Assembly (NCBI GenBank): GCA_034722055.1
Contig: JAYENL010000154.1
Location: 24,444-80,841 of the forward strand
From: Armatimonadota bacterium
GTDB taxonomy: Bacteria; Armatimonadota; Zipacnadia; Zipacnadales; UBA5352
Length of the DNA stretch: 56,398 nt
Direction: 5' to 3'
Below the pieces are notes generated by a model. The model ran no database searches and had not been told where the DNA came from. It was given only the letters and a program-made list of their open reading frames with translations. A program made the translations under genes and the position numbers. Below are positions 10,217-44,473 of this stretch, one piece after another. Positions within the stretch are counted from its first letter, which is position 1. Each line of letters starts with the position of its first letter.

Positions 10217-10229
10217 GGAGCCCCGATAG

Positions 10230-10900
10230 CCTTGGGAGGCGGGCGCCCCCGCCCGTTTCTCCTGGCGACAACATTCGCGTAGGCCGGGCTTCCAGCCCGG
10301 ACAGACGGCGCACGCACAGGAGTGTGCGTGCCACGGAACGACACGGCATCCGCCAGCCGTTGACCGTTCGCCGTCGAGCGTCACGCACGCAAGGGGCCTT
10401 TCGGTGGGACGGACACTCCTGTCCGTCCGCCGTCCTGCGCAGGCCCGAAAGCCACCCGAAGAAGCGCACGCGCCCGCCCGCTTCTCTCGCACATCCTCCG
10501 CGTAGGCCGGGCTTCCAGCCCGCCAGCGACAGAAGAAGCACCCCAGCGGAGGGGCCGCCTGAGGGCGATTGCGCCGCAATCGCGCAAAGTCGGCCCGGCG
10601 GGTGATTGCCAGGCCTGGGCCGGCTTCGTCGGGCCTGACGGCCCTCCTCAGGACGGCCCCTCCGACGGCCTCTCGTCGTGCCATCCAAGCCGATGACCCA
10701 CCCCGACGCGCGCGACGGGCGGAGCCGGTGCAAGGCTCACCTCTCCGCTCGCTTCTCCTCGCACATCCTCCGCGTAGGCCGGGCTTCCAGCCCGGCAGCG
10801 ACAGACGAGGCATGGATAGAGACTAGATGTCTCCGGTACGCGTGCCACGCAATGACGCCTTGGGGCGCCTGCGCAAAGAAGGTAACCGCGCGCCGCAGCC
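10230..10900. repeat. cluster of at least 4 copies (both orientations) of a ~90-130 nt structured intergenic repeat; core CGCGTAGGCCGGGCTTCCAGCCCG + variable hairpin + GTGCCACGNAAYGRCG
   Basis: Forward cores start at ~10276, ~10500 and ~10773. A partial inverted copy lies at ~10375-10470. Each contains hairpin 1 (CCGGGC TTCCA GCCCGG). Hairpin 2 varies compensatorily between copies (GCACGCACA-GGAG-TGTGCGTGC versus GGACGGACA-CTCC-TGTCCGTCC versus GAGAC-TAGAT-GTCTC). The same family occurs at 33328 and 33533. Confidence 0.7.
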
Positions 10901-12264: not shown

Positions 12265-12371
12265 GGGGAGGCCCTCAGACAGCCGACGACAGCTCGCTCA
12301 GGCAGGGGTATCGAATGCCGGCGCATTGCCCGGCGGTCGCGGCCCCGTGCCGAGCCATTGCCGCGCCGTAT

Positions 12372-12400
12372 GGAGGGGCCGGACCACCGTCCGGCCCGCC
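12372..12400. repeat. REP-like palindromic hairpin GGAGGGGCCGGACCACCGTCCGGCCCGCC (9-bp stem, 4-nt loop) in a convergent intergenic region
   Basis: The same 29-mer (C/T variable in the loop) recurs at ~33226, ~33431 and 44334. This copy is flanked by the shared context TTGCCGCGCCGT. Confidence 0.6.
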
Positions 12401-12411
12401 GTTTCTTGGCA

Positions 12412-14331
12412 TTACCCGATGTCGATGTGCAGCTTGCGGTAGAGCTCGCCGGGCAGCAGCGCGCCGAAGGCGCCCCACAGCAGGCCCGCCACGAACAGGT
12501 GCCCGAAGGCGATGCCCAGAAACAGCGGCACCAGCCGCCGGTAGGTCCCGGCCCCGCCCAGCTTCACCACCAGTGACTTCACCACCCACACGGCCAGGAA
12601 CGGCCCCCACAGCAGGTAGCCGTAGCTGGTGGCCAGTGCGTACCCCAGCGGGTGCACGGGCAGCCGCAGGAACTGATGCCGCAGCGCGGAGAGGGCGGTC
12701 ACCACCGCCGCCCCACCTGCCGCGAAGCCCGTCGCCAGCCGCTGCGGCGGCGCCGGGCTGTCGTACATCCCCGACAGCAGGTCGAACTCCTGCCGAGCCA
12801 GCGTCGTCCGGTATCCCCCGGCGATCGTCCCGCCCTCCAGCACGTTGGCACCGTACTGGTAGAACGCCTGCAGGTGCATGGCGTAGGCCAGCGGGAGGCC
12901 CACCACGAAGGCGATCACCAGCGCGGCCACGATCTCCCGGCGGCGGGCCCGCATCCTATCGCCCAGCTCCAGGCTCTCCACCTGGAAGGCCATCAGCCCC
13001 GGGAAGTAGCCGCGGCAGAGGAAGTTCATGATGGACATGATGGTCAGCGACTGAAAGCCGCCACGCGCCCATGGCGCCGAGCCGGTGGCCTCCAGAATGA
13101 GCTTCTTGGCCTCGCCAAAGGGAAACGCCCAGTTCGTGGGCACGCCGGTCTCCGCCCGCACGCGGGTGAAGGTGATGGCGACAGCCAGCATCACGCCGAA
13201 GAACAGCGCCGCCAGGCCAAGGTGCATGCCCGCCGCTCGCGCCCACACGAGCATCCCCGCCAGCCCGGCCGCCCCAAGGACGTATGCCCAGCCACGACGC
13301 GCGTCGCCCGCCTCCGCGCGCCCCATCAGCCCCTGCAGCGCCTCCCCCAGCGAGCGCCGCGCCGACCACACCAGCAAAACGGCCATCGCCACGTAGGCGC
13401 CGACGCTCTGCCGCATGGTGAACGGGAAGCCCGGCGGCTCGTAGCCCACCGCCGTTCCGCCCACCGACAGCAGTTGCACCAGCAGAAAGAAGGCCCACGT
13501 CGATCCCAGGATCTCCAGCGGCACAAGGTAGCCGAAGCCCAGGAACTCCGGGCGGTGGTAGAAGCGAACGGCACCCATTGCGCTCCAGGGGCGCTCGGTG
13601 AAGAGGCTCCCGACCGGGTAGGTCAGACCCAGCGCCGGGAGTGCGGGGTTGAGCGCCTGCGCGATGTTGGTGCCGTCGAAGAGCGCCGCCAGGCCGAAGC
13701 CGATCCACATCAGCGGGTCCCGAAGCATCGGCAGGCGCGAGACGGCGCCCTCCCGGCCTACAAGCTCCACCGCGAATGTGGCCACCGGGTAGGTCAGCCG
13801 GTCGTGCTCCGTCCACGGCCGGCGCAGCAGCACCGCCACCGCCAGCAGCAGCGCGAAGAAACAGCCCAGCAGCAGCGCCCAGGAGGCCAGCGGCTGCAGC
13901 CAGGCGTCCCAGGGCACGCGCTCGTTCGCGGCCCCCTCGAAGTAGGCCTGGATCGCGGCGTCATCGCTCGGCGCCACCCAGCCAGGCACCAGCTTGGCAA
14001 GCTCCGCGTAGTTGTTGGGCGGCTCCGCGAAGTAGGGCAGGGCCGTCAGCGACGGCAGCAGCGGCCGGACGATCCCGAGGCTCGTCAGCGGGATGCCCAC
14101 CAAGACGATGATGTAGGCCACCGCGATCTCCGATGCCGCCAGCACGCGCCGACGCCGCAGCCACGCCAGCAGCCGGTCCAGGGCAATCAGCGCCAGCAGC
14201 GCCGCCAGGGCTGGCCCGGAGGGCACGCTGTTGTCGATGTTCGCCCCGAAGGTGATCAGCGAGGCGTAGCGAATCCACGCCACGCCGACCACCAGCAGCG
14301 CGACCCCCAGTGTCGTGGCGCGCAGACTCAT
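12412..14331 (-). CDS. large polytopic integral membrane protein of unknown family (paralog of 35300..37282)
   Basis: ~640 aa from MSLRATTLGVALLVVG, with many hydrophobic helices. Segments align with the second paralog: YFEGAANERVPWDAWLQPLASWAL vs FYEGLRSGAAMPWRPWLQALAAWLP; RRPWTEHDRLTYPVATFAVELV vs RRQWVDNEKLSFPLTVLPVELA; RDPLMWIGFGLAA vs ADPIMWIGFAIPT. Confidence 0.7.
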   Translation of the reverse strand: MSLRATTLGVALLVVGVAWIRYASLITFGANIDNSVPSGPALAALLALIALDRLLAWLRRRRVLAASEIAVAYIIVLVGIPLTSLGIVRPLLPSLTALPYFAEPPNNYAELAKLVPGWVAPSDDAAIQAYFEGAANERVPWDAWLQPLASWALLLGCFFALLLAVAVLLRRPWTEHDRLTYPVATFAVELVGREGAVSRLPMLRDPLMWIGFGLAALFDGTNIAQALNPALPALGLTYPVGSLFTERPWSAMGAVRFYHRPEFLGFGYLVPLEILGSTWAFFLLVQLLSVGGTAVGYEPPGFPFTMRQSVGAYVAMAVLLVWSARRSLGEALQGLMGRAEAGDARRGWAYVLGAAGLAGMLVWARAAGMHLGLAALFFGVMLAVAITFTRVRAETGVPTNWAFPFGEAKKLILEATGSAPWARGGFQSLTIMSIMNFLCRGYFPGLMAFQVESLELGDRMRARRREIVAALVIAFVVGLPLAYAMHLQAFYQYGANVLEGGTIAGGYRTTLARQEFDLLSGMYDSPAPPQRLATGFAAGGAAVVTALSALRHQFLRLPVHPLGYALATSYGYLLWGPFLAVWVVKSLVVKLGGAGTYRRLVPLFLGIAFGHLFVAGLLWGAFGALLPGELYRKLHIDIG

Positions 14332-14500
14332 GGTGCGGGTGATCGTCTCCCTGCCGCCGACGCCCGCAGGCGCCGGAAGTTCGGAGGCATGAGGGCATTT
14401 CAGGCGCCTCCCACGTCCACCTCTCATTCGACAGGCCGGGCCGCGTTCCTCCGCCCACGCACCACCCGCAGCATCAGACTCGGCGGCACAGCGCGGGCGC

Positions 14501-31398: not shown

Positions 31399-31656
31399 CC
31401 TGCCTTCCCCTCAGCGTGCAGGCTCCCGCCCTCGCGTGGCGAAACGCCTCCTGTGAGTGCGCAGATGCTGCACGTGAGGGAGCGAGGTCAGCATGATCGA
31501 GCGGTTCACCATCAGCCGCGACGACTCCATCTACGAGTGCTTCCGCGCCGTCCCCCTCACCCTGTCCATCCCGTTCCGGAGCCGTCGGCGTTCAGCCGTG
31601 GTCGTATCTCGTTGATCGCCGCCGTTCGCCTATCTGCCGTTGAGGAGGAGCCACAC

Positions 31657-33165
31657 ATGCCGCGCTTCCATTCGGACCCCAGCAATATCGACCGGACGCT
31701 CCACGTCCTCTGCCGCGACATCGGCAACCGCCTCGCCGCGACCGAGAACGAGCACCGTGCGGCCGAGTACGTCGCTGACCAGATGCGACAGATCGGCCTC
31801 TCGGACGTCACTCTGGAGCGCTTCCCGTTCCGCGTCTGGGGCTATGAGACGGCCGAGGTCCGCGTGCTGGGCGATGGCGCGCGGACCATCGAGGCCATCC
31901 CGGTCGCGAACTCCCCGGCCACGCCCGAGGCAGGCATCGAGGCCGAGGTCGTCTACGTGGACAACGCCACGCCCGCGGACCTGGCGATGCACGATGTCGA
32001 GGGCAAGGTCCTGCTCATCTGGGGACTCTACGGCGACAAGCGCGAGAAGCTGCAGATGCTCCAGCGCTCCGATGCCGTGGGCGTGCTGTGGGTCGATGAC
32101 CGCCTCCCCTTCGACTGGCCGGTGTCGGCGGGCACGCCCTACGACTGGCGCGACACCCTCCAGCTCCCGCAGCTCACGCTCCCCTACTTCGACGCCCTGG
32201 AGCTGGCGCAGCAGCCCGGCGCTCGCGTGCGGATGATCAGCCGCACCTGGTCGGAGCCGGCCGAGTCCGTCAACGTCCTCGGCGATCTGCCCGGCCCCGG
32301 CGAGGAGCTCGTCCACGTCGGCGCGCACATCGACAGCGTCATCGTGGGGGTCGGCGCGGAGGATGACGGCTCCGGCGTGGCCGCGATGCTGGAGGCCGCG
32401 CGCATGCTGGTGGAGCTGGGCGAGCGGCCTGAGCGCACCGTCCGCTTCTGCGCCTTCGGCGCCGAGGAGCAGCTCTCGGAGGGCGCGCGGCAGTATGTCG
32501 AGGCGCATCCGGAGGAGGTGGATCGCACGCGGCTGATGGTGCAGCTCGACTCCGTGGCGGCCATCACCGGCCGCAACCAGCTTCGCGTGGTGGGGCCGCC
32601 GGAGCTGACCGACATGGTCCGCGCGCTCATCGAGCCCGGCCACGAGCCGCTGTCGGAGGCGGCGGGCACGCCGGCGGAGGGCGAGGATCGCGGCTCCTAC
32701 ACCCGTGGCGGTGATGTGCACCGCCCCGAGGAGGCGGGGCCGGGCGCCAAGCACGGGCCATCGCCGGGCACGCCCGCGCGGGATCGGGCCTCCGTGGCGC
32801 GCGGGGCGGAGATGTCTCGACCGAGTCAGGCCGGGCCGTCGCCGGAGGTCCAGCCGCGGGGCGTGCCGGTGATCTCGGGGGAGGTGCTGGAGGAGGTCTC
32901 GCCCTACTCGGACATGTTCCCGTTCAACGCCCGCGGGGCGCCGTCGGTGTGGCTGCATCGGATGAACCAGGCGGGGACGCGCTACTTCCACCACTCGCAC
33001 CTGGACGACCTGCAGTCGATCTCATCCGAGGTCATCGCCATGCACGCGAATGCCACCGCGCACTTGACGCACACCGCGGCCTTCACCGACCCCACCTGGC
33101 AGCGGACCATCCCCCAGGGCCAGATGACCGAGATCGAGGAGATGGCCAAGCGCTTCTTCCCGTAG
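31657..33165 (+). CDS. M28-family Zn aminopeptidase with a ~75-aa low-complexity insertion
   Basis: GAGGAGG Shine-Dalgarno + ATG at 31657. M28 core (HVGAHIDSV, AEDDGSGVAAMLEAARML, AFGAEEQ, C-terminal HHSHLDDL). Insertion is GTPAEGEDRG...PSPEVQPRG. Confidence 0.8.
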   Translation: MPRFHSDPSNIDRTLHVLCRDIGNRLAATENEHRAAEYVADQMRQIGLSDVTLERFPFRVWGYETAEVRVLGDGARTIEAIPVANSPATPEAGIEAEVVYVDNATPADLAMHDVEGKVLLIWGLYGDKREKLQMLQRSDAVGVLWVDDRLPFDWPVSAGTPYDWRDTLQLPQLTLPYFDALELAQQPGARVRMISRTWSEPAESVNVLGDLPGPGEELVHVGAHIDSVIVGVGAEDDGSGVAAMLEAARMLVELGERPERTVRFCAFGAEEQLSEGARQYVEAHPEEVDRTRLMVQLDSVAAITGRNQLRVVGPPELTDMVRALIEPGHEPLSEAAGTPAEGEDRGSYTRGGDVHRPEEAGPGAKHGPSPGTPARDRASVARGAEMSRPSQAGPSPEVQPRGVPVISGEVLEEVSPYSDMFPFNARGAPSVWLHRMNQAGTRYFHHSHLDDLQSISSEVIAMHANATAHLTHTAAFTDPTWQRTIPQGQMTEIEEMAKRFFP

Positions 33166-33213
33166 CGCCCTGACTCGTCTCTCGTACGGAGGGGCGGCCT
33201 GCCCAGGCCGCCC

Positions 33214-33600
33214 GCCGTGCCGTCTGGAGGGGCCGGACCACTGTCCGGCCCGCCGTGCCGTTTGCCGCGCCGTTTGGAGGGGCGCGACTACGTTCGCGCC
33301 CGGCCGTCGCCGCCCGCTCTATCTCACGCGCAGGTCGGGCTTCCAGCCCGACAACGCAAACGACGCACGGACCGAGACCAAAGGTCTCCAGTGTCCGTGC
33401 CACGGAACGGCGGCCTTTGCCGTGCCGTCTGGAGGGGCCGGACCACTGTCCGGCCCGCCGTGCCGTTTGCCGCGCCGTTTGGCGGGGCGCGCCTCCGCTC
33501 GCGCCCGGCCGTTGCCGCCCGGTCTATCTCACGCGTAGGTCGGGCTTCCAGCCCGACAACCCAAACGACCGGCGGGTCTGAAGACGCCGCCGCTCCTATA
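33214..33600. repeat. two tandem copies (period 205 bp) of a composite repeat: REP hairpin + GC hairpin + CGCGYAGGTCGGGCTTCCAGCCCG structured core
   Basis: 33214-33418 and 33419-~33600 are near-identical (GCCGTGCCGTCTGGAGGGGCCGGACCACTGTCCGGCCCGCCGTGCCGTTTGCCGCGCCGTTTGG...). They sit directly upstream of the candidate restriction endonuclease gene. The long ORF 33217..34377 through them is an artefact. Confidence 0.85.
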
Positions 33601-33696
33601 TGTCTTCAGCGTACGCATGCTGCCCCAAAGCCAGTCAGCTTGAAGGGCTGCCCAGCGATCGGTGCGAATGGGGTAGTAAAGCCCCGCGGAGTGTGG

Positions 33697-34377
33697 ATGG
33701 CTCCACGCGAGAGGGATGACATTGTGAACGATGACAGAGATTACAAGACGGCGGCTCTGAAGAACATGGTTGCAAATCGGTTCCAACTGAACTTCAAGCG
33801 CAACGTCGGACCCACCTCACAGTCCATCAGGGAGTGCCAGCCCCGCTCGAGAGATGGGTGGGCAGATTACTACTACGCGAGCGTCCGGCCCCCCAAGCAC
33901 ATCGACGGACTCGGGAGGATCATGTACCAGAAGATCCACGAGGAGATCATTCCTGCACTCCAGAGCATCACGGTCGAGGAGTGCATCGCATACATGCACG
34001 AGCTGGTCATCGACAAGACGTACGATGGATACTGCGCCGAGATTGCTGCAGTGAAGCAGTTCGTCGAGGAGGAGTTGGAAGGCTACGAGGTCCTGCCCGC
34101 GCCTGACGAGGTGGACAGGACACTGGCGGTGGACTACTACATACCCGTCGGCGAGAACTGGGTTGGGTTGCAGATCAAACCTGTCACAGTTGAGCAGATT
34201 CCCAATCTACATGAATGGCAGGAAAGGTGGCGTGAGGGCCATGAGGAGTTCCGACGCCGGTACGGCGGAGGGGTCTTCACGCTGGTGAGTGTCCGCGAGG
34301 GGCGCGACCAGAAGGCACTCCACAATCCCGAGGTCATTCAGGACATCAAGGCTGAGATACAGCGGCTTGAGCAGTGA
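33697..34377 (+). CDS. candidate Type II restriction endonuclease (PD-(D/E)xK-like), partner of the adjacent methyltransferase
   Basis: 226-aa ORF with GC content visibly lower than its neighbours. Convergent with, and overlapping by ~32 bp, the DNA methyltransferase gene. Possible catalytic pattern ...VDYYIPVGENWVGLQIK. No recognised family; the call is by context. Confidence 0.45.
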   Translation: MAPRERDDIVNDDRDYKTAALKNMVANRFQLNFKRNVGPTSQSIRECQPRSRDGWADYYYASVRPPKHIDGLGRIMYQKIHEEIIPALQSITVEECIAYMHELVIDKTYDGYCAEIAAVKQFVEEELEGYEVLPAPDEVDRTLAVDYYIPVGENWVGLQIKPVTVEQIPNLHEWQERWREGHEEFRRRYGGGVFTLVSVREGRDQKALHNPEVIQDIKAEIQRLEQ

Positions 34378-35275
34378 CGTCGCCATCCCGCGGCGCCTCG
34401 CGGGTCTCAAACGTGAGGTCTACCTCGCCGGCATCGAACAGGCTTGCGTCCCCGACGCCGAACTTGTCGCGGATGACCTCCCGGAAGGCCTCGTTGATCT
34501 CGTAGCCCACCGATGAGCGGCCCTCTTCGTGAGCCGCGAGGGCCGTCGTTCCACTCCCCATGAACGGGTCCAGGACCGTGTCTGCCCAGAAGGTGTACAT
34601 TTTGATCAGCCGCCGCGGGATCTCCAGCGGGAACATCGCGACGTGGTCCTCCTGTCGAGCCGGCGGAATGTCATCCCAAACGCCCCTGAACCACCTGGAC
34701 CGCTGCTCTTTGGTGAGCCTGCTCTTCTCCTTTGCCTCGTCGGAGGCAGGGCCGGGCCAATCGCCGCGCTTGCGCAGCAGCAGGATATACTCGTGCTCGT
34801 AGGTGACGTGGCCGTCGCGGGGGTAGTACATGGACCCCATGAGCGTGCAGCCGCCCGTGGTGTTGGTGGTGGACACCTTGCGCCAAATGATGTTGCCCAT
34901 GAAGTCGAAGCCGACCTGGCGGCCGATCACGCTGAGGTCGGCGGGGATGGGCTGGACCCGATACCGCCCGTGCTCGGAGGCGCGCAGGTACTGGTCTCCG
35001 ATGTTAATGGCCATTCGGCATCCGGGGTGCAGGACGCGGTGGCACTCCGCGATGACGCGCTCCATCGACGCCAGATACTCATCGTAGGCTTGGCGGTGAC
35101 CGATCTGGCCGGGATGCTCGTAGTCCTTGATGCACCAGTAGGGAGGGGACGTCACCACCAGATGAACGGACGCGTCTGCCAACTCGCTCATATACTGACT
35201 GTCGCCGAAGATGATGCGATGCTTCTGCGCAGAGTCTGACACAGCGGCCACCTCGTTAGCAGCGGGTCCTGTCAC
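34346..35275 (-). CDS. beta-class DNA amino-methyltransferase (N4-cytosine or N6-adenine); motif IV SPPY precedes motif I FxGSG
   Basis: LVVTSPPYW (motif IV) near the N-terminus, DPFMGSGTT (motif I) near the C-terminus. This is the permuted beta-class order seen in M.PvuII/M.RsrI-type enzymes. Confidence 0.85.
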   Translation of the reverse strand: MTGPAANEVAAVSDSAQKHRIIFGDSQYMSELADASVHLVVTSPPYWCIKDYEHPGQIGHRQAYDEYLASMERVIAECHRVLHPGCRMAINIGDQYLRASEHGRYRVQPIPADLSVIGRQVGFDFMGNIIWRKVSTTNTTGGCTLMGSMYYPRDGHVTYEHEYILLLRKRGDWPGPASDEAKEKSRLTKEQRSRWFRGVWDDIPPARQEDHVAMFPLEIPRRLIKMYTFWADTVLDPFMGSGTTALAAHEEGRSSVGYEINEAFREVIRDKFGVGDASLFDAGEVDLTFETREAPRDGDVTAQAAVSQP

Positions 35276-35299
35276 TCACATCGTCATTATACCATCAGC

Positions 35300-37282
35300 T
35301 CACGGCCACGGAAAGAACGGCGCTGGCGTTCTCCAGATGCCGGAGATGGTGGCCCAGAGCACGGCCTGGGAGAACTCGCCCAGGATGAGGCCGAAGAAGA
35401 ACGGCCGCAGCCGCAAGTACACGCTCATGCCCCCGTAGCGGATCACCCCGCCCTTGATCAGCCACGCCACCAGCATCGGGAACCAGAACACGATCATGCT
35501 CCACGAGCCCGAGAGCGCGAAGCCCAGCGGCGAGAGCGGCCACCACACATACTGCATGCGCAGGACGCTGAGCACCAGCGTCACCACCACCCCCGAGCCG
35601 AAGAAGGCCAGCAGCCGGGGGTCATACTCATCCCCCGCCTGCAGGATCGGCGCGAAGTAGCGCACCCCCAGCAGGGGATTGCCGCGGTAGACGTAGCCGT
35701 ACATGCCGATGGCCCCGTGCTCGTAGGGCAGCCGCAGGTGCAGCCAGCCCCCGAAGCCCAGCGCCACCGCCAGCGCCACGCCCAGCGCCCCGAACAGGTG
35801 CCGACGATCCAGGCCGGTCGCGTCGGACATCTTCAGCGAGTCCAGCAGCGTGGAGAGCAGGTTGCCGCGCAGATCGCGGGTGAAGACCGCATCGGCGAAG
35901 GCCAGGGAGGTGAGGGTGCTCGGCCGCAGGGACTTCATGGGCGTGCCCAGGCGCACCAGGTCCACGGGGCGGAAGCTGGTCTCGGTCATCAGCAGCCCCG
36001 CCTCGGCCACGCTGCGGGCCATCACCACGCAGACCACGCCCAGGAAGACGATGGTCTCCAGCGCGGCCATCCACCAGCTCATCCCCAGCATCGCGAACCA
36101 CCCCGTGGCGACGATCACCGCCGCGGCCAGGCCGATGAGCTCAACGCGCGGCGGCAGCGCCGGCCGGGCCTCGGCCTCATGGTCCGCGGCGTGCTCGCCG
36201 CCGCCCATCGCGGCCCGCCACAGGGCGGACAGATGCGGGCGCGCGGAGCGGATGAGGTAGCCGGTGAGCACCAGGTATGCGCCGGCCACCTGGTAGCCGT
36301 TCCACAGTGAGGTGGGGTAGAGGGGCATGGGCTCGAAGGTTGCTCCGAAGGCCGAGAAGGCGATGTTCTGGATGCGGATGATGACGTAGAAGGCCCACAG
36401 GGAGAAGAGGACCTGGGCGGGGAGGAAGTACCCAAAGCCCACGGCGGCCATGGAGGTGTAGGCGGTGGTGTAGCCCAGGTCCCGCCACGGCCGGCCCATG
36501 GCGTTGAAGACGAGCTGGTTGAGGCGGTATTGGACGGGGATCTGGGGCACGGACGGCCGCAGGCCGTGGATGCCGTTGACGGTGAAGACGATGGTGGGGA
36601 TGGCGAAGCCGATCCACATGATGGGGTCGGCGAAGACCGAGCGCGCCCACCGGGAGTGCTCGGCCAGCTCCACCGGCAGGACGGTGAGGGGGAAGGAGAG
36701 CTTCTCGTTATCCACCCACTGCCGGCGGATGATCGACGCCAGGCAGAAGTAGGCCACGAAGAGGGCCAGCACGGGGGGCAGCCAGGCCGCCAGGGCCTGC
36801 AGCCACGGCCGCCAGGGCATGGCTGCGCCGGAGCGGAGGCCCTCGTAGAACGCGGAGGCGATCCACTGCCCGGACTCGCCCTCCACGTCGAAGGGCACCG
36901 CCCACTGGGGGATGTGCTCGAAGAAGAGCTGGGCCCAGTCGTTGGCGGGGTTGGCGTAGTAGTTGACGCAGATGAGCGCCGGGATCCACCGCTCCAGCAG
37001 CCCGCGGCTCATGGTCAGCGCGCCCACCAGGGTCATGGTGTAGACCACGATGACCTCGTGCGCGCGCAGGGCGAGGCGAGGCACGAGGGCCCCGATGGCG
37101 AGATTCGCCATGACCACCGCCAGCAGGATGCCGATGGCGGTGGGGGCGAACTGGCAGATGGCGATCTGGATGCTGCCCACCGTCATCTCGGCCCAGGAGA
37201 CCATCCAGCAGGCGGCCGCCGCGCAGGCGGCGCCGATGACGACGGCCCGGACGGACAGCGGGCGGCGCGGGATCGCGATCAC
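35300..37282 (-). CDS. large polytopic integral membrane protein of unknown family (paralog of 12412..14331)
   Basis: 660 aa with many TM helices. Shares several colinear motifs with the first paralog (see 12412..14331). Ends 25 bp upstream of the methyltransferase start on the same strand. Confidence 0.7.
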   Translation of the reverse strand: MIAIPRRPLSVRAVVIGAACAAAACWMVSWAEMTVGSIQIAICQFAPTAIGILLAVVMANLAIGALVPRLALRAHEVIVVYTMTLVGALTMSRGLLERWIPALICVNYYANPANDWAQLFFEHIPQWAVPFDVEGESGQWIASAFYEGLRSGAAMPWRPWLQALAAWLPPVLALFVAYFCLASIIRRQWVDNEKLSFPLTVLPVELAEHSRWARSVFADPIMWIGFAIPTIVFTVNGIHGLRPSVPQIPVQYRLNQLVFNAMGRPWRDLGYTTAYTSMAAVGFGYFLPAQVLFSLWAFYVIIRIQNIAFSAFGATFEPMPLYPTSLWNGYQVAGAYLVLTGYLIRSARPHLSALWRAAMGGGEHAADHEAEARPALPPRVELIGLAAAVIVATGWFAMLGMSWWMAALETIVFLGVVCVVMARSVAEAGLLMTETSFRPVDLVRLGTPMKSLRPSTLTSLAFADAVFTRDLRGNLLSTLLDSLKMSDATGLDRRHLFGALGVALAVALGFGGWLHLRLPYEHGAIGMYGYVYRGNPLLGVRYFAPILQAGDEYDPRLLAFFGSGVVVTLVLSVLRMQYVWWPLSPLGFALSGSWSMIVFWFPMLVAWLIKGGVIRYGGMSVYLRLRPFFFGLILGEFSQAVLWATISGIWRTPAPFFPWP

Positions 37283-44150: not shown

Positions 44151-44333
44151 CCGCTCACGTCCGACCGCAACGGGCCTGCCGCATCCGGCGGCAGGCCCGT
44201 TCTCGTGCCGCCTGCACTCTCGGCTGGCCCGCTGAGAGCGTGGTTGCGCCCCTCCCAGCGGCAGAATGGCCGACCGCGCCCCTGAACCGCTGCGCTGCGC
44301 ACCGATTGCCGTCACGCGAGCGCAAGCTCGCGT

Positions 44334-44362
44334 GGAGGGGCCGGACCACCGTCCGGCCCGCC
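44334..44362. repeat. REP-like hairpin GGAGGGGCCGGACCACCGTCCGGCCCGCC (fourth copy), preceded by a second hairpin CGCGAGC-GCAA-GCTCGCG
   Basis: Identical to the 12372 copy. Lies in the tkt-to-oxidoreductase intergenic region. Confidence 0.6.
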
Positions 44363-44473
44363 GTCGTTCTGGCCTGCACCACGCGTTGCTGTGCATGAAG
44401 GCAGGAAACCATCGCGACACGCGGAAGAGGGCCTCTGATGCGGCGCCGACCTGCTCTGCAGAGGAGGACACCG

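Follow-up and report, generated by a model that had tools for sequence, protein, structure and literature searches.

A convergent MjaI-family restriction-modification cassette with probable CTAG specificity in an Armatimonadota contig

Results

Two convergent genes overlap at their 3′ ends

In a 56.4-kb stretch of DNA from an Armatimonadota metagenome-assembled genome (MAG; contig JAYENL010000154.1, positions 24,444 to 80,841, 56,398 nt in all, hereafter the window), a restriction endonuclease gene of the MjaI family (R) lies tail to tail with the gene of a beta-class DNA methyltransferase (M). R occupies 33697–34377 on the + strand and encodes 226 residues when read from an ATG; M occupies 34346–35275 on the − strand and encodes 309 residues when read from a GTG. 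A first-pass annotation of this DNA had described two tail-to-tail open reading frames (ORFs) that overlap by about 32 bp. The coordinates of both hold, and the overlap is exactly 32 bp (34346–34377), with no terminator-like site in it. The Pfam matches (E=6.5e-31 for R and 9.8e-45 for M) mark both as genuine genes rather than chance ORFs. The R ORF is full length and contains no frameshift or internal stop.

Both genes likely start downstream of these positions, at GTG 33724 (R, 217 residues) and GTG 35242 (M, 298 residues). We prefer these starts because they are used in the GenBank gene models, MEA3401561.1 for R and MEA3401562.1 for M, because the N-termini of the homologues in the closest relative (locus L081, where M starts at ATG) align with them, and because Shine-Dalgarno-like sequences precede them; that of M, read from the sequence, is a GAGGTG on the − strand at 35249–35254, 6 nt upstream of its GTG. 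We rejected a 386-aa upstream-extended ORF (33217–34377) as the real R gene, since its extension spans repetitive extragenic palindromic (REP)-like repeats and no homologue reaches there.

The pair differs from its surroundings in composition. The dip in G+C reported earlier for 33600–34400 is real: we measured 0.575–0.600, against 0.68–0.73 in the flanks. At third codon positions, G+C (GC3) is 0.76 in R and 0.82 in M, compared with 0.93–0.96 in the flanking peptidase, flotillin-like, and membrane-protein genes. The low G+C of the cassette therefore points to a foreign origin.

R is a member of the MjaI family with a predicted PD-(D/E)xK core

R matches the Pfam profile RE_MjaI (PF09568) over positions 4–149 of 164, scoring 107.8 bits where the curated cut-off is 22.7, and the PADLOC model for Type II restriction endonucleases (REase_II) with E=7.6e-24. 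An identical protein in GenBank, MEA3401561.1, from an 80.8-kb contig of an Armatimonadota MAG, is already named "MjaI family restriction endonuclease"; its neighbor MEA3401562.1 is annotated as "site-specific DNA-methyltransferase". PF09568 was present in all 71 relatives of R examined, and the R family occupies at least 565 loci in species-representative genomes, among them Bacteroidota, Chlorobiota, Fibrobacterota, Bacillota, Planctomycetota, and several archaeal groups. These matches place R in the MjaI family, a known family and not a new one, whose place in the PD-(D/E)xK superfamily had been recognized by sequence analyses of 2008 and 2012 (PMC2441816, PMC3424549).

No NCBIfam model matches R, and a sequence search of the PDB returned only chance matches to LacI-family proteins (E≥0.15), so that no solved relative can be detected by sequence. 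The phage collection contained no relative of R. The plasmid collection contained three distant ones, 23–26% identical and annotated as MjaI family; pFZ1, which carries MthZI, is not part of that collection.

An alignment of 32 family members revealed a strongly conserved N-terminal block, NRFQLNFKRNVGPTS.SIR (NRFQLN..VG..S..IR). Conservation is complete at E115 and reaches 90% or more at D146, Q159, and K161; D137, D140, and R141 are also invariant or nearly so. R of the window retains every one of the invariant and nearly invariant residues.

An AlphaFold2 model of R built on this alignment has a mean predicted local distance difference test score (pLDDT) of 85.7 and a predicted template modeling score (pTM) of 0.73. 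The N-terminal half is helical and is followed by an alpha-beta-beta-alpha-beta core, the PD-(D/E)xK core expected from the first-pass proposal that R is such a nuclease. E115 lies in a long helix (93–126), D146 opens a strand (147–151), and Q159 and K161 lie in the strand 154–163. Because this placement matches the canonical topology of the superfamily, E115 (34039–34041), D146 (34132–34134), Q159 (34171–34173), and K161 (34177–34179; together 34039–34179, + strand) are predicted to be the catalytic residues. We infer that the active site is an E…D-X12-Q-x-K variant of PD-(D/E)xK, with glutamine at the (D/E) position. A D…E-x-Q-I-K pattern had been suggested earlier. Its D146 and Q159-I-K161 are conserved, but E152 is not, and the conserved acidic partner is E115. 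The confident model thus supplies testable catalytic residues for a family in which no solved structure can be detected by sequence.

M is a beta-class methyltransferase predicted to form N4-methylcytosine

M matches Pfam N6_N4_Mtase (PF01555; E=9.8e-45) and the PADLOC model MTase_II PDLC03259 (E=3.9e-100). The SPPY motif (residues 43–46, 35138–35149) precedes FMGSG (residues 238–242, 34550–34564), which is the beta-class order. This order and the PF01555 match bear out the earlier assignment of M as a beta-class SPPY methyltransferase. The nearest solved structure is TTHA0409 (2zie), which matches residues 17–273 with E=6.9e-62 and has the motif VHLVVTSPPYW in common with M; N4-cytosine methyltransferases come next among the structure matches and beta-class adenine methyltransferases follow more distantly. 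SPPY in motif IV indicates a target of N4-cytosine rather than N6-adenine. The predicted product of M is N4-methylcytosine (m4C).

Small convergent ORFs lie beside two relatives of M, one of 207 aa (L087) and one of 239 aa (L083). We considered them as divergent MjaI-like nucleases and rejected them, as BLASTP gave E=1.4 and 0.015, respectively, and neither had a Pfam nuclease match. The 207-aa ORF has a membrane-like look.

The family pairs R with M in two layouts

To place the pair among its relatives we used the best 80 of the at least 565 family loci (L numbers denote related loci); Methanocaldococcus jannaschii falls outside these 80. An M homologue adjoins the MjaI-family gene in 74 of the 80 and lies upstream of it on the same strand, in a co-directional M-R order, in 71. 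In the window, PADLOC calls R a REase_II and M an MTase_II. These calls and the adjacency of the genes identify the pair as a Type II restriction-modification (R-M) system, as had been proposed.

Two loci of the co-directional main clade were inspected (L003, 4695–5987; L020, 4718–5980). M has 420–430 residues there and carries a C-terminal SNase-like domain (PF00565), and its stop overlaps the start of R; the apparent gap between the conserved part of M and R is this C-terminal domain and not a separate gene. The two closest relatives of the window pair are convergent. L081 (R 71% and M 79% identical) has a 4-bp 3′ overlap, L082 (62% and 70%) has a 38-bp overlap, and M has about 290 residues in both. 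The MjaI family thus shows two layouts, an M-R operon with an SNase-tailed M and a pair of converging genes that overlap, with a short M. The convergent layout is a variant inside a known family and does not make the pair a new type of system.

M has a promoter-like element of its own

An extended −10 promoter-like element, TGGTATAAT, lies on the − strand at 35286–35294, facing M, in the gap that follows the stop of the neighboring DUF6785 gene at 35300. It contains a TATAAT, of which the window has no other copy on either strand, and L081 has TGTTATAAT at the equivalent position. The sequence suggests that TGGTATAAT is M's own promoter. A terminator scan found none between the convergent genes, and no ORF besides R and M that could encode a controller (C) protein fits in 33570–35299. 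Because there is neither a controller ORF nor a terminator between the genes, it is plausible that antisense or colliding transcripts from the M side control R.

The window avoids CTAG

The characterized relatives of R and M act on CTAG. Activity on CTAG has been shown by experiment for MjaI (MJ0984), of which MthZI is an isoschizomer; both start at GTG, and both express poorly in E. coli from these starts (PMC2615612). To express MjaI, its GTG had to be replaced by ATG. M.MthZI, M.MjaI, M.BfaI, and HVO_0794 of Haloferax volcanii belong to the beta-class m4C methyltransferases of CTAG and have SPPY in place of DPPY (PMC5867850), and LomA of Leptospira interrogans is another CTAG m4C relative of M.MthZI (PMC7708080). 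In a published phylogeny MthZI, from Methanothermobacter, nests among homologues from Bacteroidetes, Chlorobi, and Fibrobacteres (PMC3424549), and R of the window is 46–49% identical to members of these groups.

CTAG occurs twice in the window (10823 and 40499), against 65 occurrences expected under a second-order Markov model, an observed/expected ratio (O/E) of 0.03. No other 4-bp palindrome comes near this depletion: of those with a meaningful expected count, all have ratios of 0.67 or more. For CTAG the ratio is 0.34 in contigs of close relatives that lack the cassette at this site, and 0.23 across 62 family-carrying loci from other phyla. Family membership and the literature, with this depletion in support, lead us to infer that R and M most likely recognize CTAG.

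The cassette occupies a variable insertion site

The right flank is a − strand gene at 35300–37282 that encodes a membrane protein with DUF6785 and DUF6784 domains (Pfam E=2.7e-130 and 2.8e-28) and has a host-like GC3 of 0.96. The distance from this gene to M, given previously as 25 bp, is 24 bp to GTG 35275 and 57 bp to the likelier GTG 35242. We compared DUF6785 orthologues on related metagenome contigs and found varied neighbors downstream: another N6_N4 methyltransferase with an ORF of unknown type (L115, 91% identical), a DUF4928 gene (L119, 89%), a gene for a 1074-aa Eco57I/MmeI-like protein (L094, 79%), a metallophosphoesterase gene (L095, 79%), and, in L081 (87%), an MjaI-type pair as in the window, followed by a PIN gene. 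Distant DUF6785 homologues mostly have housekeeping genes next downstream. In L082 (GCA_004196255.1, SDBU01000023.1, 1–12660) the pair sits inside a tryptophan-biosynthesis cluster, with trpB/C/D/G/E on one side and an esterase gene and trpF on the other, and no DUF6785 gene is present. The pair is thus found in three contexts, in the window, beside the PIN gene in L081, and inside the trp cluster of L082. Composition and context together mark the cassette as horizontally acquired and mobile.

The first-pass annotation had regarded the membrane-protein gene as unusual company for a methyltransferase. Since its orthologues precede such varied genes and L082 has the pair without it, the adjacency is better explained by an insertion hotspot than by a functional link. 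In this Armatimonadota lineage, one DUF6785 gene has at its 3′ end a variable insertion spot for defense genes, beside REP-like elements.

On the left flank, two tandem 151-nt copies (33214–33364 and 33419–33569, + strand; together 33214–33569) are 95% identical, repeat with a period of 205, and have a host-like G+C of 0.71. They consist of host REP-like, G+C-rich hairpin elements and do not belong to the R-M system. The sequence of element A is GGAGGGGCCGGACCAC(T/C)GTCCGGCCCGCCGT, and that of element B is CGCGTAGGCCGGGCTTCCAGCCCG. One sub-element has further copies at 44335 and at 12371, the latter 10 nt past the stop (12412) of a DUF6785 paralog; a second has three further copies in 10276–10800 (10279, 10500, and 10772). 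In all, REP-like hairpin elements lie in intergenic host DNA at 33214–33569, 12340–12402, 44333–44364, 10276–10340, 10499–10525, and 10771–10861. One unit folds with z = −3.35. Rfam gave nothing meaningful in 32900–35500 and no match to the REP-like elements, and the left-flank repeat was not found in any related locus compared. Because a REP-like sub-element also follows the stop of the DUF6785 paralog, the arrangement suggests that the cassette was inserted between the DUF6785 gene and that gene's REP-like cluster.

Several further features of the region were recorded. The CTAG at 10823 sits in a hairpin 3′ of a copy of element B, in the intergenic region 10217–10860. The two DUF6785 + DUF6784 paralogs of the window, at 35300–37282 and 12412–14427 (both − strand), are large membrane proteins with 29% mutual identity. 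Downstream of one distant DUF6785 homologue (L113, 10023–13394) lies a defense-like gene for a 1123-aa fusion of PLD-like and SNF2/ResIII helicase parts. The M28/M20-type peptidase gene at 31453–33165 (+ strand) contains a low-complexity insert rich in Pro, Gly, Ala, and Arg at residues ~390–470; its Pfam M28 match covers profile positions 1–102 of 193, which could reflect an insertion or a local frame problem.

Discussion

Family membership of R and M, the fold of R, the gene layout, the foreign composition, and the variable occupancy of the site directly support a horizontally acquired Type II R-M cassette of the MjaI/MthZI type. Within it, M is most likely a CTAG m4C methyltransferase and R most likely a CTAG-cutting nuclease; we put the probability of this reading as a whole at about 0.8. 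M would methylate N4 of the cytosine in CTAG on the host chromosome, and R would cut CTAG in phage or plasmid DNA that enters the cell unmethylated, presumably using E115, D146, Q159, and K161 for metal-dependent phosphodiester hydrolysis. M would be transcribed from its own extended −10 promoter, TGGTATAAT. Given the convergent arrangement, the 32-bp overlap, and the lack of an intervening terminator, transcripts that start on the M side would extend antisense into the R gene and may dampen expression of the nuclease.

Several points weigh against this reading. CTAG is under-represented in most prokaryotes, whatever their R-M systems; because such avoidance is common, the depletion in the window is supportive and not proof. 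The contrast with close relatives (O/E 0.34) draws on contigs that are short, 24 kb pooled, and in part foreign DNA. The characterized MjaI, MthZI, and M.MthZI sequences stand outside our comparison, so the assignment of CTAG draws on family membership and the literature. Relatives of M at 67–73% identity also occur alone or beside unrelated small ORFs; because these close relatives lack an MjaI-family partner, the clade of M is not tied to such a nuclease. R and its convergent subclade are 42–49% identical to the main clade, and their M has no SNase-like domain. Finally, a scan with a sigma-70 consensus that requires a −35 element found no promoter; promoter rules are not established for Armatimonadota.

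Among the alternatives, a diverged specificity is the likeliest. A change of specificity in the convergent subclade is possible, and the pair could be an MjaI-family system that no longer recognizes CTAG, with the convergent short-M subclade forming a neoschizomer or having a new specificity. Identities to the main clade of 42–49% (R) and 46–54% (M), the different gene order, the absence of the SNase-like tail, and the frequent lack of an MjaI-type partner next to the closest relatives of M would fit such a shift. Yet R keeps all family-invariant residues, including the N-terminal NRFQLNFKRNVGPTS block, no 4-bp palindrome in the window other than CTAG (O/E 0.03) is strongly avoided, and Type II nucleases usually have the same specificity when their full-length identity exceeds 40%, as general experience with REBASE indicates. 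We consider a diverged specificity unlikely. It is very unlikely that M alone functions, as an orphan or epigenetic enzyme, next to an inactive remnant of R. Orphan CTAG m4C methyltransferases are documented (HVO_0794 in Haloferax, LomA in Leptospira), close relatives of M occur alone, and MjaI and MthZI are poorly expressed in E. coli from GTG starts, but the R ORF is intact with its conserved residues and a confident fold, and the pair is kept as a unit in L081 and L082.

A functional coupling of M to the DUF6785/DUF6784 protein, with co-transcription as part of a larger unrecognized system, is scarcely credible. The two genes share a strand, lie 24–57 bp apart, and are also adjacent in L081; against this, the gap contains an extended −10 element belonging to M, the DUF6785 orthologues (79–91%) precede unrelated defense genes and distant homologues precede housekeeping genes, L082 carries the pair without a DUF6785 gene, and GC3 differs (0.96 for the DUF6785 gene, 0.82 for M). 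The initial suggestion that R is unclassified and potentially a new restriction endonuclease family has practically nothing left to recommend it: there is no NCBIfam model and no solved structure detectable by sequence, but the PF09568 match (E=6.5e-31) refutes novelty, as do the PADLOC REase_II match, the GenBank name, the presence of the family in at least 565 species genomes, and its inclusion in the PD-(D/E)xK surveys. The finding accordingly matters mainly for annotation, in that a candidate new restriction enzyme family is the MjaI family, under which GenBank already lists the protein.

Returning to the CTAG cassette itself, the convergent subclade (the window, L081, and L082, with a short M and no controller) may time expression of R through nothing but antisense or colliding transcription that starts at the strong, extended −10 promoter of M, and may also have left CTAG. 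We regard this reading as rather improbable; antisense timing or a shifted specificity, if true, would be a modest variation inside a known family.

The closest characterized counterparts are MjaI, with M.MjaI, of Methanocaldococcus jannaschii and MthZI of the Methanothermobacter plasmid pFZ1. Both are Type IIP CTAG systems whose nuclease, like R, belongs to PF09568 and the PD-(D/E)xK superfamily, and whose partner is a beta-class SPPY m4C methyltransferase; M is likewise a beta-class SPPY enzyme of the N6_N4 family. As in these systems, the window pair consists of two genes without a controller protein and the nuclease probably starts at GTG, and the surrounding DNA strongly avoids CTAG. A difference lies in the host, since the window derives from a bacterial MAG of high G+C. 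TTHA0409 of Thermus thermophilus HB8, a putative DNA methylase, HVO_0794, and LomA are solitary, unlike M, which is paired with an intact nuclease gene. Compared with the main clade of Bacteroidota, Chlorobiota, Fibrobacterota, Bacillota, and several archaea, R is 42–50% and M 46–54% identical, and the invariant residues are shared. In that clade, however, M and R form a co-directional operon in which M has 420–430 residues and an SNase-like tail, whereas in the window, L081, and L082 the genes converge with overlapping 3′ ends, and M has about 300 residues and no tail.

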